From the NCBI GenBank assembly GCA_964423445.1, contig CAYREQ010000002.1, positions 60,641-124,640 of the forward strand: 64,000 nucleotides of DNA. The letters run 5' to 3'. Position 1 is the first letter of the stretch. The number at the start of each line of letters is the position of its first letter. The notes under the pieces are model-generated. The model was not told where the DNA came from and did no database searches. It worked only from the letters and a program-made list of their open reading frames with translations. Source of the stretch: an uncultured Candidatus Saccharibacteria bacterium. GTDB lineage: Bacteria > Patescibacteriota > Minisyncoccia > Phycocordibacterales > UBA9973. Below are positions 5,201 to 54,200 of this stretch, one piece after another. Position numbers and translations under genes: made by a program.

Positions 5201-5889
5201 CAAAGAACCCAGCTGTAGTCTCAGAGACAGACGGAGAAGTAATTTCTATTACTGCAAAAGATGGTGAAGAGAAAATCATAAAAGTATTATCTGATACAAA
5301 ATTAGATGGCAAGAGTAATGAGATGGAATACATAGTAGCTTTCCGTCGAGTACCTATGGTAAAAGCAGGTGATAAGGTGAAAAAGGGAGAGCTTCTCACA
5401 GATGGTTCTGCTGACATTGCTCAAATATTCAAATTTGGAGGAAAAGAACTTGTAGAGAAATACATCATTCATGAAATCAATAAAGTTTACGAACTTCAAA
5501 ATGCTTCTATTTCTAGAAAGCACACTGAAATAATCGTTCGCCAAATGTTCTCACGCCGAAAGATAAAAGACGCAGGAGAGACAAACTTCTCTGCTGGAGA
5601 TATCGTAGAACACACTACTTTCATGGAAGAAAATATTCGTATGAATGAAATAGGTGGAACTGAAGCAAAAGCTGAGACAGTGGTCCTAGGTATTACCGAA
5701 GTATCACTTCGTACAAAGAGTTGGTTATCTGCTGCTTCATTCCAAAACACTAACCGTGTCTTAATCGAAAATGCTATCAAGGGCGGAGTAGATAACCTAC
5801 GCGGACTAAAAGAAAACGTAATCATCGGACGATTGATTCCAGCCGGAACAGGATTCAAAAAGAAAGCTTCTACTTCTAAAGAAGAATAA
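2281..5889 (+). CDS. rpoC: DNA-directed RNA polymerase beta' subunit
   Basis: 1202 aa with a Zn-finger CxxC...CxxC near the N-terminus, the catalytic NADFDGD motif, and the characteristic rpoB-rpoC gene order. Confidence 0.97.
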
Positions 5890-5895
5890 AATTTT

Positions 5896-7653
5896 ATGAA
5901 CTCTCCCGTAACAAAAATTAAGGAGAGCCTGCCAATCGAAGAAATAGTCTCTTCTTACATAAAGCTAGAAAAGTCAGGCGCAAATTTTAGGGCCAAGTGT
6001 CCATTTCACAACGAAAAGACACCATCCTTTTTTGTTTCGCCAGCACGGGGGAGCTACTACTGTTTTGGATGTAGTGCTTCTGGAGATATATTTACTTTCG
6101 TGGAAGAATTTGAAGGCTTGGATTTCAAGGGGGCATTGAAACTTTTGGCTGGTAAAGCTGGAATCCAGCTAGAGAATTTTAATCCCAAAGAAGAGAGTGA
6201 AAAAGAAAGACTTTACAGAGTGATGGAAGAAGCTACAAAGTTCTTTGAAAAAAACTTAGAAAAAAATTCTGAAGTCATTACCTATCTTAAGACAAGAGGT
6301 CTAAATGATGAAAGTATTAAAAATTTCCGTATTGGATTTGTTCCTGAAGAATGGAGACTTTTATATTCTCATCTCACACAGATTGGTTGGAAAGATAATG
6401 ATATAGAAAAAGCTGGACTCGCTAAAAAGACAGAAAAGGGAATGTATGATAGATTTCGTAATCGAATCGTGTTTCCTATCTCTGACTCCAGTGGGCGAGT
6501 CATAGCCTTTTCTGGAAGACTTTTTAAAGATGATGGAAAGTCTGCAAAGTACTTGAATAGTCCAGATACACCTATCTTTAATAAATCTCTAGTATTGTTT
6601 GGCTTGGATAAAGCCAAGGAATCTATTCGTAAAAATAATTTTTCTATACTTGTCGAAGGTCAGATGGATTTGGTATTGTCTCACCAAGCAGGTTATAAAA
6701 ATACTGTAGCCACCTCTGGTACTGCCTTGTCTGATGCTACTGTAAGCAAAGAGAATGTAGTTTCAAATCTTGGACTTGTTCGTCGTTTGTCTGAAAATAT
6801 TGTACTTGCTTTTGATGGTGATAAGGCTGGATTTAGCGCATCATTAAGGGCAGGCAAGATAGCTCTATCGCTCGGCATGGACGTAAAAGTAGCCAATTTG
6901 CCACAAGGAGTAGACCCAGCAGACTTGATATCAAAAGATGGAAATGATGCTTGGCGTAGCGCCATAAGAGGCTCAAAACACCTGATAGAATTCTTTTTAG
7001 ACAAGGTTTTACTGGACGCGAGTGGAGACAATAGAAAAGCGGGACGAGAAATAAAAGAAAAAGTGCTTCCTTTTGTAAACTCAATAGAAAGCTCAATAGA
7101 GCAAATGCATTTTATTAAAAAAATATCTGATATGTCATCTATACCAGAACAGGCGTTGAAAGATGATTTAAAAAAAATTGAACAAGAGTTGAAGTTTGAA
7201 AAAAATGAAATTAAAGAAATAAAAAATACTAGCAGTGCTATATCTAAAAAAGATTATATAGAGAAAAAACTTTTAGGTATAATTGTTTGGCAGAAAGGTC
7301 TCGGTGAATCAGAGATAGATACCGATAAAATATTGAGAGATTTGAGTACAATTTCAAAGCAGAATGAAGATTATTTTTTAGAAAAAACTAAAAACAACAA
7401 AGAAGATCTTATTTTTGAAGCAGAAGTTTTTTATGGAGGAGGAATAGACCTAAAGAAAGACATAAATGAGCTTTTGTTAAACTTAGAAGAAGAATATTTA
7501 AATGAAGATTTAGCAAAGAAAATGCAAGAATTACACAGACATTCGCAAAATAAAAACCCAGAAAAAGAAAGAGAAGTCATGGAAGAATTAAAAGAAATAA
7601 ACAATAAAATACAAAATATTAAAAATAGTCGTTTAAATAATAAGTTTATATAA
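5896..7653 (+). CDS. dnaG: DNA primase
   Basis: N-terminal CHC2 zinc finger ([11 protein letters not shown]...CFGC) and a TOPRIM region (ILVEGQMD...AFDGDKAG). Sits directly upstream of rpoD, the classical dnaG-rpoD arrangement. Confidence 0.9.
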
Positions 7654-8963: not shown

Positions 8964-9659
8964 TTATTGCTTCAAAGCCTTATCAATCTTTTGTTTTACT
9001 GATGGGAATTGTTCTGCTCCTGGGATAGTATCTACCATTTTACCATTTACAAAGATAAATGAAGATGGAGTACCACTGACACCTGCTTGTGAACCCTCAG
9101 TTATATCTGCTTGAATTTTGTCTACAAATTTACCACTATCTAAACAAGTTTCAAAAGCTTTAACATCTAGACCGATATATTTTGCTATGTTTGAAAGCTC
9201 AGATACTTCTAAACCATTGTTTGATGGAGTAACTTCAAAAACTCTATTAGTATATTTCCAGAAAGCTTCATTACCACCTTGTTCCCAAGCACACTCTGTA
9301 GCTTCTGCTTCATGAAAAGCTTTTGGGTGAAGTTGAGGAATAGGGTAGTGTCTAAATACCCAAGCTACATCACCATCATACATAGATACTGTCTGTTGCA
9401 TTGTCTGGTGGAAAACTTTACAGAAAGGACATTCAAGGTCTGAATATTCTACCACTATTACTTTTGCGTCCAAACTTCCGACAATATGATCATCCATATC
9501 TGCGGGCATTACTATGTCTGCATTGATACTATCTGTTACAAGAGGCACTTTCTCTACTTTTACTGGTGGTTTACTATCTTTTAATAATATAGCTCCAGCT
9601 ATGAGAAAACCTACTACTATAATCGCACTTACTATCTCTTTTTGTTGAATTTTTGGCAT
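8964..9659 (-). CDS. DsbA-family thiol:disulfide oxidoreductase (thioredoxin fold, CPFC active site) with an N-terminal membrane anchor
   Basis: N-terminal TM helix, a CPFC motif followed by the helical insertion typical of DsbA/FrnE-like proteins, and a cis-Pro region. Confidence 0.75.
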   Translation of the reverse strand: MPKIQQKEIVSAIIVVGFLIAGAILLKDSKPPVKVEKVPLVTDSINADIVMPADMDDHIVGSLDAKVIVVEYSDLECPFCKVFHQTMQQTVSMYDGDVAWVFRHYPIPQLHPKAFHEAEATECAWEQGGNEAFWKYTNRVFEVTPSNNGLEVSELSNIAKYIGLDVKAFETCLDSGKFVDKIQADITEGSQAGVSGTPSSFIFVNGKMVDTIPGAEQFPSVKQKIDKALKQ

Positions 9660-20703: not shown

Positions 20704-20738
20704 AAAATCCCCACCATTGCTGGAGGGGATTTTCATTT
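20704..20738. terminator. Bidirectional intrinsic terminator shared by the DUF192 gene (+) and rnpB (-)
   Basis: Hairpin aaaatcccc-acc-attgc-tgg-aggggatttt, with T-tracts on both strands. Confidence 0.6.
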
Positions 20739-20740
20739 TG

Positions 20741-21040
20741 TTGTAGGTATCTATAAGCCGAATTTTGTGTTTTCAACCGAGGTTGAAATGATAACAATTT
20801 GTCTAGGCTTGCAATTACTCACAAGCTCGAGCGATTCTCCCACGATTTTGCAATCGGGGCACGATCTTGCACACGCGTAAGGATTTTGCCGTTTCACCTC
20901 CGTATTGGAGCTCGTCTCTGTTCGCACCTCTACCGTTACCGGCGACGGGGATTACCCGCTACGTTTAACCATTAAAAGGGCTATGTGTTCGGACTTTCCT
21001 CTATGGTGTAAACCATAGTAGTTATCCGATACCTACCCAT
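20741..21040 (-). ncRNA. rnpB: RNase P RNA (bacterial type), compact, about 300 nt
   Basis: The reverse complement contains AGGAAAGTCCGAAC (P4 5' strand), GGAGGTGAAACGG (GNRA / J11-12 region) and ACAAAATTCGGCTTATAG (P4 3' strand). P1 pairing is GGGTAGGTATC with GATACCTAC. The segment is GC-enriched and free of ORFs. Confidence 0.8.
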
Positions 21041-22933: not shown

Positions 22934-23443
22934 TTATTTTACAACTACCACAGAAGCAAATATTTCTTTTGTAGGTCCACCCTCAGTTTCAATTGCAGAG
23001 ATTTTTATATCAGTCGTACCTGTATTTTCTGCTAAGAAATTCCATTCTCTAGTACCCGCATTGTTTGGTATAGTAGATGGTTTTAATCCACGGCTTTCCA
23101 ATACTAGTGAAGATTCAGCATAAGTCATTGAGATAGAAAAATATCCTCCTGTGCGCTCTGGTATGCTGACTGTAAATTTATCTCCTTTGTTAAAAGTAAA
23201 TGTCTTGCCATTATCTTTTTCGGTAATTTTGTTAGTATTTTTTTGTTCAATTTTTGGAGTAACTACTGGTTTATTTTCTGTTGTCTCTTTTGGGGTAGTA
23301 GGAATTTCCAAATTATTTTGTTCTGCGACTGGAGATGATTCCTCAACCTTTGGAGACAATGCTTTATTTTTATTAAATACAAAAACTACAATACCAATGA
23401 TTACTAATAAAACTACTAAGATATAAATTTTGTGTTTTTCCAT
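22934..23443 (-). CDS. Secreted chagasin-type cysteine-protease inhibitor (MEROPS I42-like)
   Basis: Signal anchor, a Thr/Pro/Lys-rich linker, then an Ig-like domain carrying chagasin-like loops (ERTGGYFSI; GTREWNFLAENTGTTDI). Confidence 0.5.
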   Translation of the reverse strand: MEKHKIYILVVLLVIIGIVVFVFNKNKALSPKVEESSPVAEQNNLEIPTTPKETTENKPVVTPKIEQKNTNKITEKDNGKTFTFNKGDKFTVSIPERTGGYFSISMTYAESSLVLESRGLKPSTIPNNAGTREWNFLAENTGTTDIKISAIETEGGPTKEIFASVVVVK

Positions 23444-23518
23444 ACTGGCATTATATCATAATTAAAAATATGCAAAACACAGTAAATTATTTGCATTTTT
23501 GGTTGCAGGGAGTATTAT

Positions 23519-24415
23519 GTGTTTATGACGTATTTTACTAAGAAAAATTTAATAGAAGGGCTTTTTATAGGGTTTTTGGTTGTTTTTAGCTTTAGTATTT
23601 TTACAAATAAGGCAGATGCTCAGTATATTTATTCGACAAATACCCCGAATAATCCTTCCAGTTATGCATATTATAGGCAAATATGTCCTGCAGACTATAC
23701 TCTCACAGTCTATAATACCAATCAGTATATGTGCTACAAGATTTTTGGTGGTGGTCAAGTACTTGGGGCGTCTACGACAAACTATAACTATAATTCAATA
23801 TCATCACCTAGCTTTATAGCAGGATGTTTACCAGGATATATGTACTCTGAATTAACCGGACAGAGATGTGATGGTAATTATTATTACAACGGTAATTTAA
23901 ATGGCGGTGAAGGTGATATATCAAAGTTTGATGTCAGAGATGGGAATGATATCAATCCACAAGAGGGTGATAATGATGCAGAGATTATAGAAGTAAGATT
24001 TGATGCAGATAATAGTGATATTAGACTAGATAGAATAGAGTTTGATTTTGAATTTACTGGCAATAGCAATGGGGAAGATATACCATGGAATGTTTTTGAT
24101 CAAATTAGACTTTTATCAGACGGGGACGAGATAGCACAGATGGATAGTGACAGCAGGAGCGATTGGGATAAAGAAGATGATGATACTTATAGTATAGTTT
24201 TTTCTGGTTTAAATGAAATAATAAGAGAAAATGATAGAGCAAATCTAACCTTAGAAGTCGATATAAATTCAGATATCACTGTATTAAATAACAATGATAC
24301 TTCTTGGGATATATATATTCCTGATGATGGACTAAGGGCTCGTGATGGAAATGGAAATGCTATCTATGCTGGAAATGACTCTGATAGTGTATCAATAAAC
24401 ATTGAAGAAAATTAA
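23519..24415 (+). CDS. Hypothetical secreted protein, Cys/Tyr-rich N-terminal half and Asp/Asn-rich acidic C-terminal half
   Basis: Signal peptide. 6 Cys in the first 120 residues, then DxDxD-rich segments that look like calcium-binding sites. No family recognised. Confidence 0.4.
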   Translation: MFMTYFTKKNLIEGLFIGFLVVFSFSIFTNKADAQYIYSTNTPNNPSSYAYYRQICPADYTLTVYNTNQYMCYKIFGGGQVLGASTTNYNYNSISSPSFIAGCLPGYMYSELTGQRCDGNYYYNGNLNGGEGDISKFDVRDGNDINPQEGDNDAEIIEVRFDADNSDIRLDRIEFDFEFTGNSNGEDIPWNVFDQIRLLSDGDEIAQMDSDSRSDWDKEDDDTYSIVFSGLNEIIRENDRANLTLEVDINSDITVLNNNDTSWDIYIPDDGLRARDGNGNAIYAGNDSDSVSINIEEN

Positions 24416-24523
24416 TCTATAAAATACAATGAGTTAAATTGACAAGTAGCATAAATTATGTTACGAATATTTTGTAGTAAGTTCTTCAACAACAATTCAA
24501 CAAATTTCCTTTGGAGGTAAAAG

Positions 24524-25279
24524 GTGAAAAAACTAGTTTTATTTTTGGTTTTTTTCTTGGCGTTCACAGTGAGTGCACAAGAGGAGACTACGGAAGAATC
24601 GAAGACAAACATATCAGGAACGATAGGTTTCTCTTCCATGTACCATGATTTTGAGGTCGGCGGAGATACTTTCCGCGGCTTCGTGCAAAACAATTCCTTT
24701 ACTGTCGAGCGTAGACTTAACAAAAAAGTCAGCGTTTACGCGGACTTTTGGGGGCAGTATGCCCTCGCGAAACGGCATCCAAATGAAGCCGAAGAGTTTT
24801 ACTTCGGTGGTGGTGTCGTTTACAATCCGCGACCGACGACGACGATTGATTTCTACGCCGGAAACTCAAAGCTCAACGAGCACATCAATTTACAAATGTT
24901 CGGCGTCACTGTCGAACAAGAGACGAAGGTGGGCAAGGTGCCGTTGAAGTTTTCGAACAACTTCATCGCCTTTAAATCGTCCAGACCCCACGAATTAAAC
25001 GGGGGCGTGGTAGACAAGATGAACGTATCGAGTTTCGTTGAGCTACCAAAGAAAATCAAACTCACAGGGGAAGCCGGCATCGGTTTCGACAACGGACCCC
25101 TCGGGTTTGAAGGCCCCGCCACGCTTCTTTTTTTCGAAGGGGAAGTCGAGCGGGAGATAAATAAAAATTGGAGTGCTTTTTTCACTCTTCGTCACACCCG
25201 GCCGATAGCTGGAGAGACGCTCCGAGGGCCGATTACATCGGCATCTTTTGGAATCAAGTTCAACTTCGATTTCAAATAA
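24524..25279 (+). CDS. Exported beta-strand-rich protein, outer-membrane beta-barrel-like, encoded in a GC-rich island
   Basis: GTG start with a GGAGGT RBS. Signal peptide MKKLVLFLVFFLAFTVSAQEE. Alternating hydrophobic patterns and an aromatic-rich C-terminus (FGIKFNFDFK). GC is about 50%, against about 34% genome-wide. Confidence 0.5.
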   Translation: MKKLVLFLVFFLAFTVSAQEETTEESKTNISGTIGFSSMYHDFEVGGDTFRGFVQNNSFTVERRLNKKVSVYADFWGQYALAKRHPNEAEEFYFGGGVVYNPRPTTTIDFYAGNSKLNEHINLQMFGVTVEQETKVGKVPLKFSNNFIAFKSSRPHELNGGVVDKMNVSSFVELPKKIKLTGEAGIGFDNGPLGFEGPATLLFFEGEVEREINKNWSAFFTLRHTRPIAGETLRGPITSASFGIKFNFDFK

Positions 25280-25280
25280 C

Positions 25281-25322
25281 CGCCTACCAGAAAACCGAAT
25301 GCGTTTTCTCGTAGGCGGTTTT
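25281..25322 (+). terminator. GC-rich intrinsic terminator
   Basis: CCGCCTAC...GTAGGCGG stem followed by a T-tract. Confidence 0.6.
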
Positions 25323-25382
25323 CTTTTTATATTAGTAGACTTTAATTTTTTTAGGTATATAGTCATAGAGGAGGTGACTATT

Positions 25383-25886
25383 ATGTCATTGTTGTTATTT
25401 AAAAATTTGGCGAAATACGTCGCCAAAAGTATCGTTTTAGCTATCATGATTACCTTTGTGGTCAGTATAGCTAATGGGCAAAAAAAACAGCGTCCTAAAA
25501 AAAATGTATCTAAAAAGACCGCGATGGTGAGAGTTCACAAAAAAATTCGGCGCCCAGAGCCGAAAAGGTATATCTCACCTGTCTTACCAAAAATTTTGGT
25601 ACCGTCGGAACCCTTACACAGGGAATTACATTACACTGAGGAAAGCTGGACCGACGCGATGGCGTCGAAATTCATAATCGTTTCTTTTAGGCCAAATGGT
25701 GGAATATTGTCGTATCGTGTCATGCATGATGCCACTGAAGAACTTTTTTCCATCAAGGTCGATTCGGAAACAGCTTATCTTGTTCCTGTAAAGGAAAAGA
25801 ATGGCGACCTAGAAGGGTGCTTTATGATGGCGTACTGCAAAGTACACAACACGGCACTAATCCTTTCACAAGTTCAATGTTTCTAA
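25383..25886 (+). CDS. Hypothetical exported protein in the GC-rich island
   Basis: Strong GAGGAGGTG RBS 7 nt upstream of the ATG. Signal peptide, a basic linker and a Cys-containing C-terminal domain. The track ORF's upstream extension (25248) is unlikely to be real. Confidence 0.4.
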   Translation: MSLLLFKNLAKYVAKSIVLAIMITFVVSIANGQKKQRPKKNVSKKTAMVRVHKKIRRPEPKRYISPVLPKILVPSEPLHRELHYTEESWTDAMASKFIIVSFRPNGGILSYRVMHDATEELFSIKVDSETAYLVPVKEKNGDLEGCFMMAYCKVHNTALILSQVQCF

Positions 25887-25908: not shown

Positions 25909-25935
25909 GCGCCGAGTAATCTCGGCGCAATTTTT
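25909..25935. terminator. GC-rich bidirectional terminator hairpin
   Basis: gcgccgag-taat-ctcggcgc plus a T-tract, between convergent genes. Confidence 0.6.
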
Positions 25936-25947
25936 AATTTATCAAGT

Positions 25948-27513
25948 CTAAGCAAAACCAGGGAAGAAGTCTATCTTTATATTTCTTTTAGGTATACCGA
26001 TAGATTTTAAAGTCTTTTCAAAAGCATTAACCATACCATGTGGACCTGATATATAAAACATTTTATTCATATAATTTGGGACTTCTTTTTTGATAACATC
26101 AGCATCTATAAATCCACCGTACATAGAATCTCCAGCTACGGGCTCACCTTTATCTGTGATAGCATACACGGTTTTTATTCCGAGCTTCTTTTCTGCTTCA
26201 TCAAAAATTTCTTTATAAGATATATCAGTTACTTTTTTATTTGAGTACAACAGGGTGATATTTCTTTTTTCATTTGTGTCTATCAAATATTTAATCATGC
26301 TCCTAAAAGGAGTAATTCCTATACCACCCGCAATAAAGACCAATTCTTTTTGGTGATTTTTGGGTAATACGAAATCACCAGATCTCTGCCCAGCCACTAT
26401 CTCATCACCTATTTGTAGTGCCAATAATTTGTTTTTAAAACTACTAGGCTCAGGATAAAATTTTACTCCCAAATGTATCTCTTTTTCTGTGGGAGAAGAG
26501 GCGATAGTGAAATATCTTCTATTTCCACGAGTATCTGGGCTCCTGTGTTTTAGTGTCCATTCCATATATTGTCCTGGTTTAAAATTTATTTTTTCATTAT
26601 TTTCAAAAATAAAATCAAATGTATCTGTACCTACTTCTATACGTTTTTTTAATTTCAAGAAAAGCTTTTCTTTTGGGCTGACTATATACGCAAAGATATT
26701 TCCTATAACCAAAGCCAATTCTGGAGTCGAATAAAATCCTCCTATATGCAAAGCAGGTGTAAATAAAAATCCCACCAAGATACCAAAAGAAATTCGGAGC
26801 CATTTTGTAGTAGGTGAGGTGAGTGGTTCTGTCAGCATTACAAAAGCAAAGAAAAAGAAAGCAGAATTTTTTAAGGTTATCAAGAGAGTATTTAAAATAT
26901 TTGATGAATCTGAACCTTTAAAAAATGCCAAGACGGCTATGCTGAATAAAGCAGATATGAAAAAGCTCACAAATAATTCTACATGACGTATTTTTCTAAT
27001 TATCAATACTCCACCCAATATAACGATAGGAAGCATAGCAGGCGTACCTATCCACCAGCTAGCTGAATAATTTATAGCTAAAGATACGATGACTACAGCG
27101 ATAGCGACTGGATTAAAGATATGCTTTCTATTTATTGCAAATATGTATTTTGAAGCTACACCCCAGATACTGGCCCATAATGCTAGGGGCAAAAATTGTG
27201 AGTATGTCCCGCCTTCAATTGGGGTAATTATAAAAAATAGTATTAGAGCTGTGATGTATATAGATTCTACATTTGTCGGAGCTTTATATACATAAGAAAA
27301 AACAATGTGAGAAATATATGATACTACCAGTATAAACAATAGAGATATGGTTAAGTCTACAGGTGTGTAAGGTAGTAGTTTGAAAAACGATAATACCAAT
27401 GCTGACGCAAAAAAGAAACACAATACATATAGCACCACGCGGTACATAGTAGTCTTATTTAAAAAGTTGTCTATAAAATTAAGCATAAATTTTTTCTTTT
27501 GTATATTCATCAA
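25948..27513 (-). CDS. Polytopic membrane flavoprotein oxidoreductase: N-terminal multi-TM domain fused to a ferredoxin-NADP-reductase-like FAD/NAD(P)-binding module
   Basis: About 8 predicted TM helices in the first 290 aa. Then the FNR-family RxY(S/T) FAD motif (GNRRYFTIASSP) and a GGxGxxP NAD(P) motif (FIAGGIGITPF). Confidence 0.6.
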   Translation of the reverse strand: MMNIQKKKFMLNFIDNFLNKTTMYRVVLYVLCFFFASALVLSFFKLLPYTPVDLTISLLFILVVSYISHIVFSYVYKAPTNVESIYITALILFFIITPIEGGTYSQFLPLALWASIWGVASKYIFAINRKHIFNPVAIAVVIVSLAINYSASWWIGTPAMLPIVILGGVLIIRKIRHVELFVSFFISALFSIAVLAFFKGSDSSNILNTLLITLKNSAFFFFAFVMLTEPLTSPTTKWLRISFGILVGFLFTPALHIGGFYSTPELALVIGNIFAYIVSPKEKLFLKLKKRIEVGTDTFDFIFENNEKINFKPGQYMEWTLKHRSPDTRGNRRYFTIASSPTEKEIHLGVKFYPEPSSFKNKLLALQIGDEIVAGQRSGDFVLPKNHQKELVFIAGGIGITPFRSMIKYLIDTNEKRNITLLYSNKKVTDISYKEIFDEAEKKLGIKTVYAITDKGEPVAGDSMYGGFIDADVIKKEVPNYMNKMFYISGPHGMVNAFEKTLKSIGIPKRNIKIDFFPGFA

Positions 27514-28240
27514 AACCAGTAGTCATAGTAGCGATACCATTTTTATCTATAGAGTATGCTTCAAAACCCGGTAGCTCTTCTATGAAGTATATTCCATTTT
27601 TACCCATAGCAAAAGCAGCGGTCGCATACCTATCTGCTTCAAAAATATTTGGACCAATTACTGTGATACTAGTCACGTCTTCTATTTTCTCTGTCTTGTT
27701 TTTTGGGTTGTAGATATGATCTCCTCGTACGTAGTTTCCTGAGGTGGCTATTCCTTTATTATCAAGGTAAACTTTTTTTATTATCTCTCTTTTTTTATTA
27801 AATGGATTTTGAATACCGACGCACCATGATTTTCCTTGTTCATTTTTGCCAAAAGTTTCAGTGTCTCCTCCAGCTTCTACGTAGAAATTTTTTACACCTC
27901 TATCTTTTAAGATTTTACCTGCATTAAATATAGACCAGCCTTTGACTATGCCCGAAGGGTCTATTTCTCCACCCGGAGTTACAATGTCAAAATATCCATC
28001 TGTTAGATTTTTTGTCTCCTTGGCTAATTTAAAAATTTCTTTCATATCAGTACTCATATCTTTTTCCAGTATTTCTTTTCTGTTTATTTTCATTATTTCA
28101 CTATCATTTTTATAAGTACTAAATTTTTGATCTACATATTTGAAATAATTAAAAACCTCTTCAAAAAAATTTTCTTTGGCTTCAGAATCTACAATCTCTA
28201 CTATTATAGGTGTGCCCATTATGATCTCTGTCTGTTTCAT
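27479..28240 (-). CDS. apbE: FAD:protein FMN transferase (ApbE family), short form without an evident signal peptide
   Basis: ApbE-like N-terminus (IMGTPIIVEIV) and C-terminal conserved Asp/Thr-rich metal-binding region. Overlaps the downstream oxidoreductase gene and abuts the upstream FMN-binding gene. Confidence 0.65.
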   Translation of the reverse strand: MKQTEIIMGTPIIVEIVDSEAKENFFEEVFNYFKYVDQKFSTYKNDSEIMKINRKEILEKDMSTDMKEIFKLAKETKNLTDGYFDIVTPGGEIDPSGIVKGWSIFNAGKILKDRGVKNFYVEAGGDTETFGKNEQGKSWCVGIQNPFNKKREIIKKVYLDNKGIATSGNYVRGDHIYNPKNKTEKIEDVTSITVIGPNIFEADRYATAAFAMGKNGIYFIEELPGFEAYSIDKNGIATMTTGFDEYTKEKIYA

Positions 28241-28791
28241 TAAATTTTTGCTTTACTGAGTGCACCAGATAGAGACTCACGAAATGCGGCGCTAGTAAAA
28301 GATGCACCAGACACAGTATTTACATTTGCATCTTGGGCTACTATTGCCTCACTGGTTAGATAGGGCATAGCACGCTCATTTATACGCACAGAGGTCTGTC
28401 TGCCTTGTGGGTGGTCCAAGAACTGCACATCTGTTATTTTACCTCCAGAAATTACTGCTTTTACTTGGACATTGCCGTAATAGGCATCTGCTACTGGTCC
28501 TGTATAAGATCCATCTCTATACTTCCCATTGTTTATGACAGGAGGAGTGGGTGTAGTAGGAGTAGGTGTGGTTGGTTTTGTATCTCCACTTTTTGGGGTG
28601 CTAGGAGTCGTATTTGTGACAGGAGTAGAATTTTCTGTAGTTTTATTATAGGTAGGTAAGAGTAGGCTAATATCGGACTTATTATTGTTTAAAGTTGATA
28701 TTATTGGTACATCCGCTCCCAAAATTCTCACATATAGTGTGTAGGCAGAAAATACAAAAATTAAAGCCAAAGATAAGAATACTTTTTTCAT
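28240..28791 (-). CDS. Exported FMN-binding-domain protein (NqrC/RnfG-like FMN_bind), a likely flavinylation substrate
   Basis: Signal anchor, a Thr/Pro-rich linker, then an FMN_bind domain (YTGPVADAYYGNVQVKAVISGGKITDV...SGASFTSAAF). Covalent FMN is usually attached at the S/T in the D(A/G)x(S/T)GAS(F/Y) type motif. Confidence 0.65.
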   Translation of the reverse strand: MKKVFLSLALIFVFSAYTLYVRILGADVPIISTLNNNKSDISLLLPTYNKTTENSTPVTNTTPSTPKSGDTKPTTPTPTTPTPPVINNGKYRDGSYTGPVADAYYGNVQVKAVISGGKITDVQFLDHPQGRQTSVRINERAMPYLTSEAIVAQDANVNTVSGASFTSAAFRESLSGALSKAKI

Positions 28792-28834
28792 ATAGTCATT
28801 ATACTATATATTTCATGAATTTCAGATGAAATAT

Positions 28835-29935
28835 TTAGTCCTCAAATTCTATTTCATCAGAGTGAGATCTCCTAGAATTTTGTTCATCTCTACCAGAATC
28901 GTCTTCGTCTTCAAATTCTCCTTCATCTCCATGTTCAATCTCTATTTCGTGTTCTTCTATGTCATCATCATTATCAATTCCATGGTCGTCCTCTATCTCA
29001 CCCTTGATAACATTTGAAAGCATGAGTAATTTTATTGAGTTTAATTCAGTTATCACTACATTAGGTTTATTATTCTTTAGAGATTCTTCCGCTAGGGCAA
29101 ATTTTGCATCTATTTGGTTTTGGATATTTACTGATAGATTAATCTTCTCTTTTTGGTATAAAAGCTTGATTGAGTCTAGTAAATTTTTAGCTATAGTCTG
29201 ACCGTCATCTCTAAGACCTAACTCTAAATTTTTATTGTCGTCTCTAGATTTATTTTTTGAATTTTCTAATACAGCGATAAATTTTCCAGTCTCTTTTTTA
29301 TTATCATCACTTGAGTCTTCTTTTTCTATCATATTACCGAGGACACTCTGATATGCTTGCAGGGAAGCCTGCAGTCTGATACTCAAATCAGATGATTTTT
29401 CTACTTTACCTTCTTCTTTTGAAAGCTCATTTACGCTTGTGTTGAATATAGCTACTTCATTTTTTATATTTTCTTCTAGACTAGATCTTTTAGCTTCATC
29501 TAGCTTGCCGATAGATGCTAGATGATGGGCTTCTTTTAATCTTCTCTCTATTATTCTTTCTTTCCACTCAGTTTTTTCTTCTTTAGTAAATGCAAAAACG
29601 CCAGCCAGTGGCTCATTTACAGATACCTTTACTTTATATAAAAAATCCCCAGGTACAGATTTTTCTGCAAAAGCAGAAGTCCCACCTGTGATAAATACAA
29701 TACCCACCATTGCAAACGCACCTACAAATTTACTTTTATTAATCATAAAATAATTATTTTTAAAATCCTGATAATAAAAATATAGACGATTCGTATTTGA
29801 TTTTATTACAGGACTTTCGTTTTGCATACTAGGGGAAAATTCGTTTAGTATGTGATTACGCATAAATACCTTCTCATTATCACTGAGTTTTATGTTTTTC
29901 ACTGTTTTAATTATTTTTTCAAATTCTTTATCCAT
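28835..29935 (-). CDS. Putative anti-sigma factor: single-pass membrane protein with an extracytoplasmic coiled-coil domain and a polyacidic C-terminal tail
   Basis: Overlaps the ECF sigma gene by 8 nt. Cytoplasmic N-terminal segment, one TM helix (FVGAFAMVGIVFITGG), a long helical region, and a C-terminal tail of about 60 aa that is more than 60% D/E. Confidence 0.45.
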   Translation of the reverse strand: MDKEFEKIIKTVKNIKLSDNEKVFMRNHILNEFSPSMQNESPVIKSNTNRLYFYYQDFKNNYFMINKSKFVGAFAMVGIVFITGGTSAFAEKSVPGDFLYKVKVSVNEPLAGVFAFTKEEKTEWKERIIERRLKEAHHLASIGKLDEAKRSSLEENIKNEVAIFNTSVNELSKEEGKVEKSSDLSIRLQASLQAYQSVLGNMIEKEDSSDDNKKETGKFIAVLENSKNKSRDDNKNLELGLRDDGQTIAKNLLDSIKLLYQKEKINLSVNIQNQIDAKFALAEESLKNNKPNVVITELNSIKLLMLSNVIKGEIEDDHGIDNDDDIEEHEIEIEHGDEGEFEDEDDSGRDEQNSRRSHSDEIEFED

Positions 29936-30446
29936 TTTTATTTTCTAAATTTTTTAATAATTCTTTCAGTTTTTCTTTTGCTCTACTTATCCTGACCAAT
30001 ATTGTATTTTCCCGTTCGCCAAGTAGCTCGGCCATATCTTTTGAGCTCATATCTTCTACATAGCGTAGAATGATAGCTTCTTTATCGGCAGGGGATAATT
30101 TATCTAAAAGTGAAAGAAAAACTGAATAATCGGACATACTCTCAATATTGTCTGTGTCAGATATAGATTCAAAGAAGCCCTCAGGTAGACTGCTCTCAGG
30201 TACGCTCTTTTTCTTTCTCCAAAAATCTATAACGGTATTTTTTGCAATCATATAAATAAAACTTTTTTCATTTTGTATTTCTTCTTTATTTAAATGGTTA
30301 TAAACCTTTATAAATACATCTTGGGTCAGATCTTTAGCAGTCTCCCTGTCTCCGGTTTTAAAATAACAAAATCGGAAAATAGCGTCTGCGTGAGTATCAT
30401 AAATTTGGCTAAACATATCTTTAATTTTTTCTTCTTTAGTATGCAT
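29928..30446 (-). CDS. ECF-type RNA polymerase sigma factor (sigma-70 regions 2 and 4)
   Basis: Region 2 (ETAKDLTQDVFIKVYNHL) and a region 4 HTH (SSKDMAELLGERENTILVRISRAKEKL). About 172 aa. Confidence 0.8.
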   Translation of the reverse strand: MHTKEEKIKDMFSQIYDTHADAIFRFCYFKTGDRETAKDLTQDVFIKVYNHLNKEEIQNEKSFIYMIAKNTVIDFWRKKKSVPESSLPEGFFESISDTDNIESMSDYSVFLSLLDKLSPADKEAIILRYVEDMSSKDMAELLGERENTILVRISRAKEKLKELLKNLENKNG

Positions 30447-31181: not shown

Positions 31182-31601
31182 ATGAAAAAAGAAAAAATTG
31201 TTTACACTTTACTTCGTTACTCGATGAGTTTTATATTTCTCTGGGCATTTCTTGATAAGACTTTTGGTTTAGGTTTTGCTACCAAAGCCGAAAATGCTTG
31301 GATACACGGAGGATCTCCTACAGCTGGATTTTTATCTTTTGCAGTGAAAGGTCCTTTTGCAGAAATATTTCACAGCCTAGCAGGTTTGGTTTGGGTAGAT
31401 TGGATGTTTATGCTAGGGCTCTTGTTTATTGGAGTGACTTTACTACTAAATAAATATGTAAAATGGGGGTGCTTGGCTGGTGTCATCATGATGGCACTGA
31501 TGTATCTATCTCTTATGTTGCCTGAAAACAACCCTTTAATCGATGACCACATTATAAACATGTTGGTATTAGCTCTACTTGCTTTTAGGACTAGAGATTA
31601 G
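31182..31601 (+). CDS. DoxX-like small integral membrane protein
   Basis: Four predicted TM helices in 139 aa with a DoxX-like pattern (LLRYSMSFIFLWAFLDK). Confidence 0.45.
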   Translation: MKKEKIVYTLLRYSMSFIFLWAFLDKTFGLGFATKAENAWIHGGSPTAGFLSFAVKGPFAEIFHSLAGLVWVDWMFMLGLLFIGVTLLLNKYVKWGCLAGVIMMALMYLSLMLPENNPLIDDHIINMLVLALLAFRTRD

Positions 31602-47863: not shown

Positions 47864-48262
47864 ATGCCAAACCTAAAAAAAGTCATTTCACTACATCAAG
47901 CATCCATCATTTCTGGTTACCATCAGGATTATTTGAGCTCGCTTATTAGAAAAGGAGAAATAAATGGAGAGAAGATGGGTGGTAATTGGCTGACTACCGA
48001 AGAAGAGATAGAGAGGTATATTTTCAAGCAAAAAATTCGAAACAAAAATTGGCTATTTAGGAATTTTTTACTTCTTATAAAAAAGACAAACAAGAGTTTG
48101 CTCTATGCAGTCGTGTGCCTGATTATTTTTTCTACAGGCTTGTATTTTTACAACAAAAATAGTGCAAGTGAAATTAAAACAAACACTCAGACAAATAATA
48201 TAAAAATTTCCAATATTAATCAGCTTGGCATCAACGAAGAATTTAAAGAATTAAAATTTTAA
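47864..48262 (+). CDS. Membrane-tethered HTH_17/excisionase-like DNA-binding protein
   Basis: N-terminal HTH (ISLHQASIISGYHQDYLSSLIRKGEINGEKMGGNWLTTEEEIERYI) followed by a TM helix. Its stop overlaps the start of the giant gene (TAATG). Confidence 0.45.
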   Translation: MPNLKKVISLHQASIISGYHQDYLSSLIRKGEINGEKMGGNWLTTEEEIERYIFKQKIRNKNWLFRNFLLLIKKTNKSLLYAVVCLIIFSTGLYFYNKNSASEIKTNTQTNNIKISNINQLGINEEFKELKF

Positions 48263-51200
48263 TGAAAACTTTTTTTAATTTCAAAAAAATACGTTTCATT
48301 TTTTCTTCACTATTAGTTTTGGTGTTTTCTTTTTTCTTGGCATCAAATTTTGTTTATGCTGCTGCTGGTGTGCCAATGCTAATAAATTTTCAAGGACGAT
48401 TGATGGACAACACAGGTGCATTACTCGGCTCTGCTGGTGGTACAGATTACTGTTATAAATTTTCTATTTGGGATGCTACTACTGGTGGAAGTAAAATTTG
48501 GCCATCTGGTTCTCCATCTACAAATACTTTGGTCACTCGTCTCGGAGTCTTTGATGCGACAATTGGAAGTGCAGATACTTTAGATCTTACTTTTACAGAT
48601 GACCAAGCTTATGTAGAAGTAGAAGTGGCAACAAAAGTGGGAGGCTCATGTACTACAGGTGGTGATGAAGTTTTTGAATCTCTTTCTCCTCGTCCACAAA
48701 TCGTCTCAAGTGGTTTTGCGATAAATTCAAAAACTGTAGGTGGATTTACTCCTGCTCAATCTGCGACAAATAATCAAATTCCAGTACTCACCTCTGGTGC
48801 GATCGTCCTTGGTCATGCGACCACTGCCGGATTAAATTCAACTGGATCAAATGCACTTACCATCGATGCAGGAACTTCTGGAATTTTAAATTTAAATAAT
48901 AATTCTAGTGGAAATATTTTACTTAGTAATGGTGTCGGCTCTACTGGATGTACACTCACAGGTGCCTCCGGTGCATTTGCATGTACCGGAGCAATCACAG
49001 GATCAAACCTCTCAGGAACAAACACCGGAGATCAGACATGGAATGGAATACTAGCACCTACAGGAACTCAGACATTAACCTTTGACGATGGAGAATTAAA
49101 TGCATGGACAGTATCATCTGACACAGAAACATTCTGGACGACAACAGCAAATTCTCTAACAACAGGAACCTTACTTTCTTCGTCTACGACTGGTTTAACT
49201 ACTGGGAAAGTTTTAGATTTGACTTTAGGTTCTGCACTTACCACTGGTGGTGCGATTAATATATCTGGTGCTTCTTACAATCCCGGAGCAGGCAATACAG
49301 GTAATGTTGCTAGTATTGCTTTTACTCATGCTGCTGGAGCAGCTTCTACTTCTACTGTAAATGGATTGAATATCGCATTCACTAATTCTTCTGGAAATAC
49401 AAGTGGTACATCTGTGACTTCAGGAATTAACATCGCTCCTACTGTAACTGCAAATGGTACACCAGGAACAGAAGAAACTTATGGTATAAGAATTCAATCT
49501 GCTGCAGGTACTGCTGGTTTTGGAACTCAAAATAATTATGGTATTAGAATTGGAAGGCAAGATGTTTCTAGTTCTGAAAATGCATATGGTATCTATCTTG
49601 ATGTACCACAAATTTCTTCTTCTGATAAGACTGGGATATATGTCGGAAGTGTCAGTGTGTCTGGTCAAAAAGGTATAAATGTAGCGGGAATGGTTGGTTC
49701 AAATACAATAGGTGTTGAAATAGGGGCAACTATGAATACAGGAGCTAGTTTTTCAGGTAAATATTTATCTGTAGGTAATCCAACCACAGGTTTTATAGCA
49801 ACAGCTAGTGATACTGGAAATTATATTTATGCTAATCGTAACAATACTATTAGTGGTGGCAATACTTTGACAGTAAGTGGATCATTGGCATCACTACTAT
49901 CTACATGTAGTGGCGCAGGAACATGTAATGACTCTGCAAAGATTTTAGAATTAACTCAAAGTTATGCGTCTGCAACTGGTGATGTTATTGCAATTTCAAA
50001 TGCTGGTTCTGGTAAAGACATTAGTGGTACAAGTAATACATGGAATGTTTCCAAGGCAGGTGCTGCTGTCTTTGTCGGTGTAAACTCCGGAGCAGGACTA
50101 CTCCAAGGTCAACTCGGTCTCACAGTTACTGGAGCAGCAGTAAATTTAAATGCTTCATCAAACTTTGCTACAAACATAAATACTGGAACAAGTACTGGTA
50201 CAGTCACTATCGGAGGTACAGCAGGTAACACTATTAATATCGGAAGTGATAATACTGTAGCGGATACTATTACTCTAGGATCTGCACTGGATTCTCTTGC
50301 TATCTCGTCAACTAATTTCAAAGTTAGTTCTGGTGGTGCTATCACCGGAGCAACTGGTCTAGTCTCTTCCGGTACTATCCAATTATCATCTCTAACTTCA
50401 AACGGACCTCTATATACAAGTGCAGGTAACGGAACTCTCACCACTACTGCACCAACTAGTGGAGCTATCGGTTATTGGTCAAGAAGTGGAACTACACTTT
50501 CACAAACTACTGCAAATGATTTGGTATCAATATCTACAAATTCCACAGTCGCTTCAAATAAAACTTTTGAATCATTACAAACAGGTGCCACCTCAGGCAC
50601 AGATTATGCAGGATATTTCTCTAATACAGGCGCTGCTACAACTAATGTCGGTCTGTATGCTACAGCAACAGGTGGTAGTAATAACTATGCTGCTATTTTT
50701 GAAGCAGGCAGAGTCGGTGTTGGTGTTACAGCGCCTCTCTTCCAATTACAAGTTGCTGGCACCACTTTGATTCAGCCAGACTCTACTTGGAGTTCTGGGG
50801 ATACTTCTATTTTATTGTTTTCTGACGATAGTTCAAATTTTATAAAAGCTTACTTCACGCCAGCAGCTAACTCAGGCAGTTTAGAGGTTCGAGGTTATTC
50901 TGGAGTTGACCTCACAACAAATTTGGGAGTAGTCTTGCACTCTACTCAACAAGCAATGACAAACATCGGTAGCAACAACGATGCTGATGCATTGCTCGAA
51001 ATTAATGGTAATCGTACGGTTACTGCTTGGGGTCTAAACGGTATTCAACTACAAGCTTCTGCTTCTACCTTCACGGATTCATCTACTGCTATTTCTGGCA
51101 CAGCAACAAATGCAGTCTTCAACAGCTTTGGTATTCCAACTCTAGCGGCATCAAACGCCACAGTTACGACAACCAACGCTGCTACTCTATATGTAGCTGG

Positions 51201-54200
51201 AGCTCCTACTGCAGGCACAAACCAAACTATTACCAATGCTTACTCACTTTGGGTAGATGCAGGCACAGCAAGATTTGATGGCGATGTTACAATCTCTGGT
51301 ACTTGTACTGGTTGTGCATCTACTTGGAACGCAATCACAAACCCTACAGGCACTCAATCACTTACATTTGATGATGCAGAATTAAACGCATGGACAGTAT
51401 CATCTGACACAGAGACTTTCCAAACTATTACTGCAAACTCACTAACTACTGGAAAGATACTTTCACTTGCTTCTTCTTCATTAACTACAGGAACATTACT
51501 TGATTTGTCTAGTAACGGTACAGCAGCAGGAGCATCACAAACAGGATTAAATATTTCTCTTGCTGGAACAAATGGAACAAGTGGTATTACTTCTTACGGT
51601 GCACAAATATCAAATGTGCACGCAGGTGGTACTTCTACAAATGTAGCTTTGCAATTATCTGCAACAAATGGAACTACTGCTAACTACGCTTTGTTAGTTC
51701 CAGCTTCAAGTGGAAGTGTCGGTATCGGAACCACAACACCAATAGCTGTGTTTGATGTGCAAGGTGCAAGTTATTCTTTGGGTGGTACAGGAGATGCTAG
51801 TGGAAATGGTTCCACTACTGCATTCGATGCCAGTACTATTCTTAATTATTTAAACGGTGGCTCAATTACTCAAGCAAACTATGCAAACGCAGATATTAAT
51901 GGTGATGGCTTAGTAAGCTTCTTAGATGCTGAATTGATTTCTCAGTATGTTTCTACAGCAATCACTCTTTCACAGGCTCAGCATTCAGTTGGAAAATATA
52001 TTGCTGGTAGAGCAATCTCAATTGCTTATAACGAGAATGTTGGTATTGGATATTTAACTACAGCTCCTGATAGAAAATTAGATGTCTATGATGCATCCAA
52101 CCCACAATTGAGATTAACCCAAGCTGATAATTCTGTGTACAGTGATTTTAAAATGGATAGCAATGGCGACTTGATTATTGTCGTTGATGGAGCTACAAAC
52201 CAGTTAGTTTTGGATAATGGCGGTAACATCGGTATCGGTGACACCACCCCAGCTGCCCTATTTACAGTAGGTAACACTGACCTCTTCCAAGTAAACTCTT
52301 CAGGTGCAATTGCTGCAGTAGTAGGTATCACAAACACAGGAATCAATACAAATACTTTCCAATCTGCCACAGCACTTACAGTAGCAAGAACAGGTACAAA
52401 CTATGCATTGCAAGTAGACACAAACACAGCTTCAAGTGAGACAGGATTAAAAATTACTGCAGCTGCTGCAGCTGGAGGAGTTGCTCTCGCTACAATTTCT
52501 TCAGGTACAGATGAATTCATGACTATCGATGCTAAAGGTGCAGGTGAAGTAAGAATCGGAGGAATTTCTACCGGCTCCATATTATTTGCTGGAGGTTCTG
52601 GTTCTTCTGGTTGTACTATTACTACAGCTGGTGCACTCACTTGTTCTGGTGCTGGATCTTTCTCAAACCTCTCAGGTACAAACACAGGAGACCAGACAAT
52701 TACTCTAACAGGTGATGTTACAGGAAGTGGTACAGGAAGTTTTGCTACTACAATTGCTGCTGACTCAGTAGCTCTAACTACAGATACAACAGGTAACTAT
52801 GTTCAATCTATTACAAACGGTTCTGGTATCTCAGGAGGTAACGGAGGATCTGAAGGTGCCGCACTTACTCTTGCACTCGGTGCACTCACTGCAGATTGGA
52901 ATCAAACTGGAGCATTCACTATTTCTCTAAACAATTCTTCTGCTGGACTTAAGATGTTAGAAAATGGAGGAACTCCTACACTCTTTGGTATCTTTGATGT
53001 AGCTGATCTTACTTCAACTGACAAAACATATACCTTCCCAGATACTTCAGGAACAGTATGTATCTCCGGAGGAACTTGTGCTGCTTCTTCTGTAGTTTGG
53101 AATACAATCACAAACCCTACAGGCACTCAATCACTAACTTTTGATGACGGAGAATTAAATGCATGGACAGTATCATCTGACACAGAAACTTTCCAGACTA
53201 TTACTGCAAACTCACTTACTACAGGCATATTATTATCAACCTCATCCACTGCCTTAACTACGGGGAGAGTATTGAGTGCAACTTTGGGTTCCGCCCTTAC
53301 CACAGGTGGCCTACTTTCTACTACTGGTGCATCATACAATCCAGGTGCATCTAATACTGGTAGTCTTATAAATTTAGCTTTTACTAATGCTGCTAATAAT
53401 ACTTCAGGCAGCTCGAATGTTACCGGTATAAATATTTCTCCGACAATTTCGGCTGCTGGTTCTGGTGGTAATCAATATACTTTCGGTATTGATATTCAAG
53501 ACGCTGCGGGTACGCCCGGTGTTGGAACTCAAGATATTGTTGGTATAAGAATTGGTAATCAAGGTAGAAGTGGCGCAGAAACTAGTTATGGTTTAATAGT
53601 AAATTCTCAGAGTGGTTCGACTAATAACTATTCCGCAATCTTTTCAGGAGGTAATTTGGGTATAGGTGATTCAACTCCAAACTCACTATTTACAGTTGGT
53701 TTTAATGATTTATTCCAAATCAACACCACAGGTCAAATAGGTTCACAACAAGCTCCAGTATCTGATTATCTTTTTGCTCTAGCTGGTACAACTGGAAATG
53801 ACAATTCAAGAATTATTGATATTACTCAAGCGAATAATACGTTAGAAGATTCTATTGTAATAAAAATAGCAAATACAGCCAATGTTGGTGTAGTTGACAA
53901 TGTGGGATGGGTTATTTACAATACAGACTTTAGACTTACTCCTACTGCTACAATTACCAATGATGGTGTAGCAGATTTATTTGGAAGTTATAATAATGTT
54001 AATCCATCTAATATTACTTTATCTGATGGAGTTAGTGATGCATTTGCAAGAGGTAGCCTCAATTACGTGGCCGGTAGCATTATATTTAATAGTGCATCTG
54101 GTTCAGATAGTTATGGGGAAGTAGGGGTTGGAGGTACCGTGGAAAGCTCCCCTACTTTAACTAGTGTGAGTGCGGGTTCTAGCTTCAATACCTATGCTGG

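Follow-up and report, generated by a model that had tools for sequence, protein, structure and literature searches.

A three-gene operon on the minus strand of a Candidatus Saccharibacteria contig (CAYREQ010000002.1) probably encodes an NQR/RNF-like flavin wire that spans the membrane, made of two subunits, and the enzyme needed for its maturation; the wire would pass electrons from NAD(P)H to an acceptor outside the cell. The operon lies at positions 25948–28791 of the 64,000-nucleotide stretch of DNA that was analysed, henceforth referred to as the window. It is a new member of the published NQR/RNF-like flavinylation-associated class (Méheust 2021 eLife, PMC8238504), a representative of which, the Ktedonobacter racemifer complex, has been modelled with AlphaFold-multimer (Huang 2024 mSystems, PMC11334425), and it does not differ from that class in kind. 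The core of the original prediction, an ApbE/FMN_bind/membrane NAD(P)H-flavoprotein module for outward flavin-based electron transfer, is supported by the analysis described below.

Results

The operon consists of three overlapping minus-strand genes encoding an FMN_bind protein (28240–28791), an ApbE-family protein (27479–28240) and a membrane fusion protein (25948–27513). The original description of three genes overlapping start to stop was confirmed at the level of the open reading frames. The junction between the FMN_bind and ApbE genes is TAATG, with base 28240 common to both, and the two genes are translationally coupled. The overlap first given for the ApbE and fusion genes, 27479–27513, holds for the longest possible fusion ORF, which starts at TTG and encodes 521 aa, but not for the shorter form that is probably the true one. 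Homologues begin MLNFIDNFLNK, and the start is therefore probably the ATG at 27486, which would give a protein of 512 aa and an 8-nt overlap with ApbE (ATGCTTAA). Coupling between the ApbE and fusion genes is tight with either start.

A consensus scan identified a candidate promoter-like site (CTGAAA-16-TATAAT, 28798–28825, minus strand) that stops 7 nt short of the FMN_bind ATG, which would allow an mRNA with little or no leader. Sister loci retain TTCAT..ATTCAT and TATAGTATAAT at the corresponding position. The gene directly upstream, also on the minus strand, encodes an anti-sigma-like membrane protein (28835–29935; DUF5667, PF18915 E 4.8e-8; one TM segment at about aa 71–89) and is overlapped by 8 nt by that for an ECF-type sigma factor (29928–30446, minus strand; Sigma70_r2 / r4_2; TIGR02937 90 bits). 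The pair is associated with the operon and lies outside its core; the anti-sigma-like gene is present upstream of the module in 10 close loci only. At the other end, a perfect 8-bp GC-rich hairpin (25909–25928) separates the stop codon of the fusion gene (25948) from that of a converging plus-strand ORF (25248–25886) and probably marks the end of the operon. Its T-run is found on the plus strand only, and it is therefore primarily a terminator of the neighbouring plus-strand gene.

The gene order FMN_bind–ApbE–fusion on one strand was observed in approximately 60 of 80 independent loci, spanning 42–89% identity and several phyla. Because order and strand recur to this extent, the arrangement is not due to chance. 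Loci bearing the module belong mostly to Patescibacteria, with a few from Chloroflexota and other phyla. Clustering of all flanking ORFs of 76 loci yielded no further gene conserved alongside the three, whether for an acceptor, a transporter or an RnfA/E-like protein, and no electron acceptor was found to be genetically linked to the module among these neighbours. Recurrent neighbours were limited to ECF sigma factors (17/76 loci) and VIT1-like proteins (5/76 loci). The family in Patescibacteria comprises 331 clusters at 50% identity (E ≤ 1e-30), compared to the 127 clusters reported by Méheust 2021. Natural fusions of FMN_bind to ApbE or to the membrane domain, which would have fixed the topology, were absent from the 120 closest ApbE and 120 closest fusion-protein homologues, and from the 150 best membrane-domain representatives (maximum 589 aa). 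Literature searches combining Patescibacteria and ApbE returned nothing, and those combining Saccharibacteria with RnfD or FMN-binding returned nothing relevant; for Rnf-like systems and flavinylation from 2022, only Huang 2024 was retrieved.

The NqrC/RnfG-like FMN_bind subunit (183 aa; 28240–28791, minus strand) matched PF04205 in the domain search with an E value of 2.4e-7, exceeding the gathering score, and its residues 96–181 matched PDB 8p2a (E 1.2e-14). The protein begins with MKK and a hydrophobic anchor at about aa 4–21, as judged by hydropathy, followed by a Thr/Pro-rich linker at about aa 50–85 and the domain at aa 96–181. Residues 161–164, SGAS, align with SGAT in 8p2a, a flavinylated domain of solved structure, and form the predicted ApbE flavinylation motif (codons TCT GGT GCA TCT, 28300–28311, minus strand), of which Ser164 would be the FMN acceptor. 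Anchor and motif are both present in 71/71 FMN_bind orthologues, and in each of them [ST]GA[ST] precedes the C-terminus by about 20 aa. The PF04205 match and the alignment of SGAS with SGAT agree with the original assignment of this protein as the covalent-flavinylation target, and supply the candidate serine/threonine that the assignment had left to be located. Other flavinylation motifs in the window are chance matches in a 3120-aa Gly/Thr/Ser-rich protein, and no paralogues of ApbE or FMN_bind were found in the window.

The second gene (27479–28240, minus strand) encodes a compact ApbE-family FAD:protein FMN transferase of 253 aa. PF02424 was matched with an E value of 7e-43 (147.5 bits), and the AF2 model (pLDDT 93) aligned by Foldseek with Listeria FmnB (7esb), its best structural match, and with other ApbE structures (E 1.5e-21, TMq 0.87, TMt 0.70). 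Canonical ApbE structures are covered only to about 70% (TMt 0.67–0.71), and residues 106–157 of E. coli ApbE have no counterpart, leaving the compact enzyme approximately 52 residues shorter internally. ATSG166-168, H175, D203 and T207, as aligned to E. coli ApbE, are invariant across the subfamily; catalytic roles are assigned to these conserved residues on the basis of published ApbE work. Domain, fold and conserved FAD/Mg2+ site residues all identify the protein as an FAD:protein FMN transferase, predicted to install FMN on Ser164 with FAD as the donor.

The lipoprotein signal and mature architecture of about 300 aa typical of characterised ApbE proteins are lacking. The protein begins MKQTEIIMGTP, and an N-terminal extension is impossible because the ORF begins directly after an in-frame stop. 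An N-terminal hydrophobic segment is absent in 66/66 syntenic orthologues, all of 241–264 aa, and no signal peptide, lipobox or TM segment was found in the operon's ApbE, in these orthologues or in its 120 closest database homologues (214–263 aa). The lack of an obvious signal peptide, initially remarked on for this one gene, is thus a conserved trait of the family and not a peculiarity of the gene.

The third gene (25948–27513, minus strand) encodes a protein of 521 or 512 aa that joins an NqrB/RnfD-like membrane domain to a FAD/NAD(P)H module of the FNR type. The membrane domain (aa 10–280; 26674–27486, minus strand) has the NqrB/RnfD fold and about 10 helices, as judged by the AF2 model and hydropathy, instead of the eight originally counted. 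It matched PF03116 (NQR2_RnfD_RnfE) with an E value of 4e-9, above the gathering score. The FNR-like domain (aa 283–521; 25951–26667, minus strand), presumably cytoplasmic, matched PF00175 (NAD_binding_1; E 8.5e-17) and PF00970 (FAD_binding_6). Of the two motifs assigned to it previously, GGxGxxP is present as GGIGITP (396–402), while the proposed RxYT reads RxFT (R333-Y-F-T336-I-A-S; RYFTIAS, 333–339).

Conserved motifs of the membrane domain are NxES, KHxFNPA, (S)A(S/T)WW, TEPxTxP and TPE. The domain is shortened where NqrB and RnfD carry their flavinylated Thr, having approximately 50–60 fewer residues than these proteins, and when the PDB was searched by single-sequence and profile HMM methods only its C-terminal half aligned to RnfD/NqrB. 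SGAT does not occur in it; the closest vestige is the (S)-A-(S/T)-W-W of residues 150–154, in a stretch outside the HMM alignments to NqrB/RnfD, where 71/80 sequences have Ser/Thr at position 152 and the remainder have Asn, Ile or Glu. From the distribution of Lys/Arg clusters, the (S)A(S/T)WW loop would face outwards, and the N-terminus, the FNR domain and every other loop would be on the inner side. NCBIfam rnfD, nqrB and nqrF scores were far under the curated cut-offs (rnfD 26.6 vs 207 bits). The fusion protein is not a plain NqrF paralogue. With SGAS present in the FMN_bind protein as well, neither of the results named in advance as refuting the original prediction was obtained.

Discussion

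The proposed electron path begins at the FNR-type domain of the fusion protein, which would oxidise NAD(P)H and reduce its own FAD. Non-covalent flavin(s), which by analogy with NqrB/RnfD we infer to be bound by the membrane domain, would carry the electrons through the membrane to FMN held covalently as a phosphoester on Ser164 of the membrane-anchored FMN_bind subunit, and Ser164-FMN would then hand them to an acceptor beyond the cytoplasmic membrane. Gene structure, domain and fold identities, the flavinylation motif, conservation and synteny are direct observations, whereas cofactor content, electron direction, topology and acceptor in this scheme are inferred.

The NQR/RNF-like systems share this architecture exactly, with a PF03116 membrane domain fused to PF00175 and placed beside FMN_bind and ApbE, and they occur in matching taxa, namely the candidate phyla radiation (CPR) and Chloroflexota, the latter including K. 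racemifer. As in the class defined by Méheust 2021, N-terminal PF03116 and C-terminal PF00175 are found in one protein, the FMN_bind protein bears the [S/T]GA[S/T] motif (SGAS), and ApbE and FMN_bind are encoded immediately upstream in conserved synteny. The membrane domain of the class has been described as lacking the flavinylated Thr of NqrB/RnfD (PMC11334425). A reductase partner that had been called atypical, the fused membrane flavoprotein, is in fact the defining component of the class (PMC8238504; PMC11334425), and its novelty was therefore overrated. New relative to the published class are an ApbE that is always compact, at about 250 aa, and devoid of a signal peptide, and the larger size of the family in Patescibacteria; new for the closest clade is the ECF sigma/anti-sigma pair directly upstream of the operon.

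Resemblance to Na+-NQR and RNF extends to the NqrB/RnfD fold of the membrane domain, the FMN_bind counterpart of NqrC/RnfG, the FNR domain resembling the FAD/NADH part of NqrF, and ApbE-dependent covalent FMN. In contrast to the six-subunit NqrA-F and RnfABCDGE complexes, the operon has counterparts of only two of the six subunits. It lacks NqrA, RnfB/C and the NqrD/E or RnfA/E intramembrane Fe-S pair, and its FNR part is without the 2Fe-2S domain of NqrF; none of these genes was found in the operon, its flanks or the window ORFs scanned, nor as a conserved neighbour across 76 loci. Because NqrD/E (RnfA/E), NqrA, RnfB and RnfC are all absent, electron flow is likely to be one-way. With these subunits missing and a shorter membrane domain that appears to lack the SGAT threonine, neither the semicircular electron path nor ion pumping is expected.

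In the flavin-based extracellular electron transfer system of Listeria monocytogenes (Ndh2, EetA/B, DmkA/B, FmnB and PplA), electrons travel by way of Ndh2 and demethylmenaquinone. Like the wire proposed here, that system draws on NADH, ends in an exported flavoprotein of the FMN_bind type and includes an ApbE-family enzyme, FmnB. For the operon, however, we propose that one fused protein crosses the membrane with no quinone step, and ApbE has no export signal, whereas FmnB is an exported lipoprotein. None of the Listeria-type genes (Ndh2, EetA/EetB, DMK synthesis, FmnB, PplA) was found among the window ORFs scanned or the conserved neighbours. In Klebsiella pneumoniae, a soluble fumarate reductase is flavinylated by a cytoplasmic ApbE (PMC12052999), which likewise has no signal peptide and is encoded alongside its substrate. 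The substrate there is soluble and cytoplasmic, whereas the one here is membrane-anchored and homologous to periplasmic NqrC/RnfG.

A signal-less ApbE and an exported-looking target, with its domain behind a signal-anchor, together present a puzzle, as the published model leaves the attachment of FMN unexplained. Méheust 2021 recognised extracytosolic flavinylation systems by a signal peptide or lipidation site on ApbE and/or FMN_bind; hydropathy suggests such a segment on FMN_bind, and ApbE has none. Flavinylation could instead take place on the cytoplasmic side, with the FMN_bind protein modified before or during export, or with its domain facing the cytoplasm and bridging the FAD of the FNR domain to the membrane domain, which would itself reduce a membrane or external acceptor. 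A compact, signal-less ApbE is universal in the NQR/RNF-like module homologues examined, cytosolic ApbEs with cytosolic targets are documented (PMC12052999), and TAATG coupling would produce ApbE beside its substrate. Modification inside the cell would also require no export of FAD, which would suit a minimal cell, and the K/R balance at the FMN_bind anchor is weak, with 2 positive charges before it and 0–4 after. Against this, the anchor resembles the signal-anchors of NqrC/RnfG, whose domains are periplasmic, and exported proteins typically contain Thr/Pro-rich linkers of this kind. No credible twin-arginine motif for export of a folded domain was present among the FMN_bind N-termini whose anchor passed the hydropathy threshold; one match, in locus L080, came from an over-extended ORF on a high-GC contig and was rejected. 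Furthermore, the published AlphaFold-multimer model places the FMN_bind domain on the outer face (PMC11334425), and there seems little need for an FMN on the cytoplasmic side between FAD and the flavin of the membrane domain. We regard cytoplasmic-side flavinylation in this operon as unlikely. Slightly less doubtful is the general proposal that flavinylation throughout NQR/RNF-like systems is not extracytosolic, and that a dedicated compact ApbE modifies FMN_bind in the cytoplasm, followed by threading across the membrane or by use of an inner-face FMN domain. If this were true, surveys that admitted only systems in which ApbE or FMN_bind has a signal peptide would have undercounted Patescibacteria flavinylation systematically, and many “non-respiring” CPR cells could have this module as their main redox device in the membrane.

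An assimilatory role, in which extracellular Fe(III) is reduced for uptake, is less probable still. Méheust et al. gave this reading to a VIT1-bearing subset of clusters, VIT1 being present in 6/127 (PMC8238504), and a VIT1/CCC1-like membrane protein was likewise observed near the module in 5/76 loci (e.g. L056, 8372–9073). Linkage at about 5–7% of loci is rare, however, and cannot define a general function, and neither VIT1 nor another iron transporter is encoded near the operon in the window.

It is very improbable that the operon is a remnant or a scattered part of an ion-pumping RNF or Na+-NQR, with the remaining subunits encoded at other places in the genome. The fusion protein is publicly annotated as “RnfABCDGE type electron transport complex subunit D” and weakly matches TIGR01946 rnfD and NqrB, but all of the NCBIfam scores fall well below their cut-offs, a fused FNR domain takes the place of RnfC/NqrF, the membrane domain has no SGAT, and no RnfA/B/C/E or NqrA/D/E was detected among the window ORFs scanned or as a conserved neighbour in 80 loci. 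Virtually no likelihood attaches to a ferric-reductase/NOX/MsrQ-like bis-haem membrane domain with His pairs ligating haem b, raised originally as a ferric-reductase-like feature to look for, since PF01794 was not matched, the PF03116 match and the NqrB/RnfD fold indicate flavin-based and not bis-haem chemistry, and H131 and H256 form no four-His haem cage, the former lying within KHxFNPA, which presumably matches the NPA motif of NqrB, and the latter in a symmetry-related hairpin.

The preferred reading remains a flavin wire directed from NAD(P)H to the outside. Patescibacteria are usually portrayed as fermenters without an electron transport chain. The most plausible role of the module in such fermentative cells is disposal of reductant, or reduction of external Fe(III), O2 or another oxidant. 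The class is known from genomes and AlphaFold models only, so that a first biochemical test could be made on any of its members. The compact, signal-less ApbE is relevant to how exported proteins acquire covalent flavins when FAD itself has no way out of the cell, and to whether published estimates of CPR flavinylation run too low. A widespread, conserved NAD(P)H-to-outside flavin wire would give Patescibacteria a means to shed reducing power or to reduce external substrates.

Organization of the operon

ORF calling returned three minus-strand genes at the positions originally predicted: an FMN_bind gene (28240-28791, 183 aa), an ApbE gene (27479-28240, 253 aa) and a membrane-FNR fusion gene (25948-27513, 521 aa as the longest ORF). 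The first two are joined by a TAATG junction in which base 28240, as claimed, belongs to both, closing the stop codon and opening the next start codon. The overlap at 27479-27513 (35 nt) applies to the longest possible fusion ORF, which opens with TTG, but not to the likely start codon. Since the fusion homologues begin with MLNFIDNFLNK, the real start is most likely the ATG at 27486, which would yield a 512-aa protein and an 8-nt overlap (ATGCTTAA). A perfect GC hairpin (25909-25928) lies between the fusion gene and its convergent neighbour.

A promoter-like CTGAAA-16-TATAAT sequence ends 7 nt 5' of the FMN_bind ATG, and the promoter-like elements TTCAT..ATTCAT and TATAGTATAAT are kept in sister loci. 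The spacer (28792-28834, minus strand) carries the direct repeat TTCAT-N5-6-ATTCAT, conserved at equivalent positions in L002-L009 and L024 of the comparison loci, followed ~17 nt beyond by TATAGTATAAT, whose end is only 6-7 nt from the ATG. This arrangement suggests that the operon is transcribed from a promoter of its own and that its mRNA is leaderless or nearly so. The two genes directly upstream (28835-30446, minus strand) encode an ECF sigma factor and an anti-sigma-like DUF5667 membrane protein whose C-terminal tail is acidic. This same-strand pair was found directly upstream in the closest clade only (10 loci). Of 76 loci, 17 have ECF sigma genes in the neighbourhood of the module, in varied orientations.

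Protein subunits

In the FMN_bind subunit, a Thr/Pro-rich linker connects an anchor, made up of MKK and a hydrophobic stretch, to the FMN_bind domain (PF04205), which is homologous to NqrC/RnfG, periplasmic subunits of NQR/RNF. Its proposed role as the covalent-flavinylation target was supported by alignment to the covalently flavinylated domain of 8p2a (E 1.2e-14), which places SGAS (161-164) opposite SGAT; Ser164 is the predicted FMN acceptor.

The second protein is an ApbE-family FMN transferase (PF02424, E 7e-43). Superposition of its AF2 model (pLDDT 93) on known ApbE structures, Listeria FmnB among them, gave TMq 0.81-0.87 but spanned only ~70% of those structures; nothing in it corresponds to residues 106-157 of E. 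coli ApbE. The ATSG motif, His175, Asp203 and Thr207 are invariant across the subfamily. The window's ApbE, whose ORF begins immediately after a stop codon, has neither a signal peptide nor a lipobox nor a hydrophobic segment. All three are likewise missing from each of 66 syntenic orthologues and from the 120 closest database homologues (214-263 aa).

The third protein combines PF03116 (NQR2_RnfD_RnfE) with FAD_binding_6 and NAD_binding_1, which upholds the predicted fusion of a membrane protein to an FNR-type module. The number of helices was revised from eight to approximately ten based on the AF2 model (pLDDT 84.6, pTM 0.80), in which the FNR domain follows directly. Lys/Arg clusters put the N-terminus, alternate loops and FNR domain inside, and a conserved (S)A(S/T)WW loop outside. 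The suggested ferric-reductase-like heme domain was rejected because no PF01794 signal was present. Compared to NqrB/RnfD, the membrane domain is ~50-60 residues shorter in the region of the flavinylated threonine. At remnant position 152, 71 of 80 sequences have Ser or Thr; the residue is not invariant, a variability compatible with the published non-conservation of this flavinylation site.

Distribution of the module

Fusion homologues number in the thousands in the protein database. Nearly all of the 120 closest are 495-527 aa (two are shorter), almost all contain PF00175 and PF03116, and the named sources are Patescibacteria metagenome-assembled genomes. The membrane domain alone retrieved 331 representatives at 50% identity (E <= 1e-30). 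The 80 genomic loci fetched for comparison (42-89% identity) were mostly from Nomurabacteria/Paceibacterota and other CPR lineages, with a few from Chloroflexia, Anaerolineae, Thermoleophilia and Dormibacterota and some from bins labelled as other phyla.

The order FMN_bind-ApbE-fusion on a single strand was observed in ~60 of the 80. In five loci (L018, L020, L023, L030 and L045, about 5400-7500 in each) the fusion gene comes immediately after FMN_bind, without an intervening ApbE, and the upstream neighbour is a divergently transcribed sigma factor gene; in L036, ApbE is on the opposite strand ~3 kb away. Clustering of all flanking ORFs from 76 loci identified no conserved fourth gene. VIT1-like proteins recur nearby in five of the 76. 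The window (31182-31601, plus strand), L001 and L005 also encode, close to the module, a small membrane protein with several passes (139 aa) that matched no Pfam family; in L041 (4165-4746) it is the gene just ahead of FMN_bind and has the same orientation.

Other features of the window

Four ORFs with N-terminal hydrophobic segments (169, 298, 251 and 212 aa) occupy 22934-25886; none matched a Pfam family above gathering score, and homologues of the latter three were found only in L001, the closest locus. A DsbA/Thioredoxin_4-family protein (8964-9659, minus strand) is likely another extracytoplasmic redox protein, with no quinone-linked partner in view in its region. The bacterial type A RNase P RNA (20738-21037, minus strand; 112 bits against a gathering score of 100) covers only 300 nt of a 367-position model, suggesting a reduced RNA. 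A 3120-aa Gly/Thr/Ser-rich ORF (48262-57624, plus strand), which has a single dockerin-type domain and ends in a repetitive, acidic tail, is probably a giant surface protein; its eight [ST]GA[ST] matches occur by chance. The 59400-62500 region, with GC up to 0.48, strong G-over-C skew, short AGGTGGAGG and AGGAGGAGGTGG repeats and no Rfam match, probably codes for Gly-rich sequence on the plus strand, the ORFs listed there being Pro-rich, antisense-looking frames.

Class assignment and proposed electron path

Méheust 2021 (PMC8238504) defined NQR/RNF-like systems as flavinylation-associated clusters encoding a fusion of a PF03116 membrane domain with PF00175, and reported 127 of them, chiefly in Actinobacteria and CPR. 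The window locus agrees with this definition feature by feature, in support of the predicted flavin-based electron-transfer module. As literature searches found no experimental study of any NQR/RNF-like member, the operon is a further member of an already described, uncharacterised class. Huang 2024 (PMC11334425) modelled the Ktedonobacter complex, noted that its membrane subunit has lost the flavinylation site, and proposed that FMN bound covalently to the small subunit visits the flavin pocket of the membrane subunit.

In the best-supported path, NAD(P)H would reduce FAD in the cytoplasmic FNR domain, and electrons would move on to one or more non-covalent flavins within the NqrB/RnfD-fold domain, to covalent FMN on Ser164 and finally to an acceptor outside, with ApbE as the putative maturation enzyme. 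Ion pumping is not expected: no NqrD/E or RnfA/E gene was found among the window ORFs scanned, and without these subunits there would be no return path. The rest of the window carries genes for housekeeping, glycolysis and the pentose-phosphate pathway and, as originally noted, none for respiration; a role in redox balancing or external-substrate reduction fits this gene content.

The signal-less ApbE contrasts with the sole canonical ApbE motif of the operon, which is carried by a domain that follows a signal-anchor. The FMN_bind subunit may be flavinylated before it is exported, its FMN domain may face inward, or ApbE may leave the cell by an unconventional route; cytosolic ApbEs are known, acting on cytosolic substrates (PMC12052999). 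Genes without predicted signal peptides were removed by Méheust 2021 (PMC8238504), where flavinylation was reported as under-represented in CPR, and signal-less ApbE may contribute to that under-representation. The remaining interest of the operon lies in this puzzle of ApbE topology and in how prevalent the module is among Patescibacteria.
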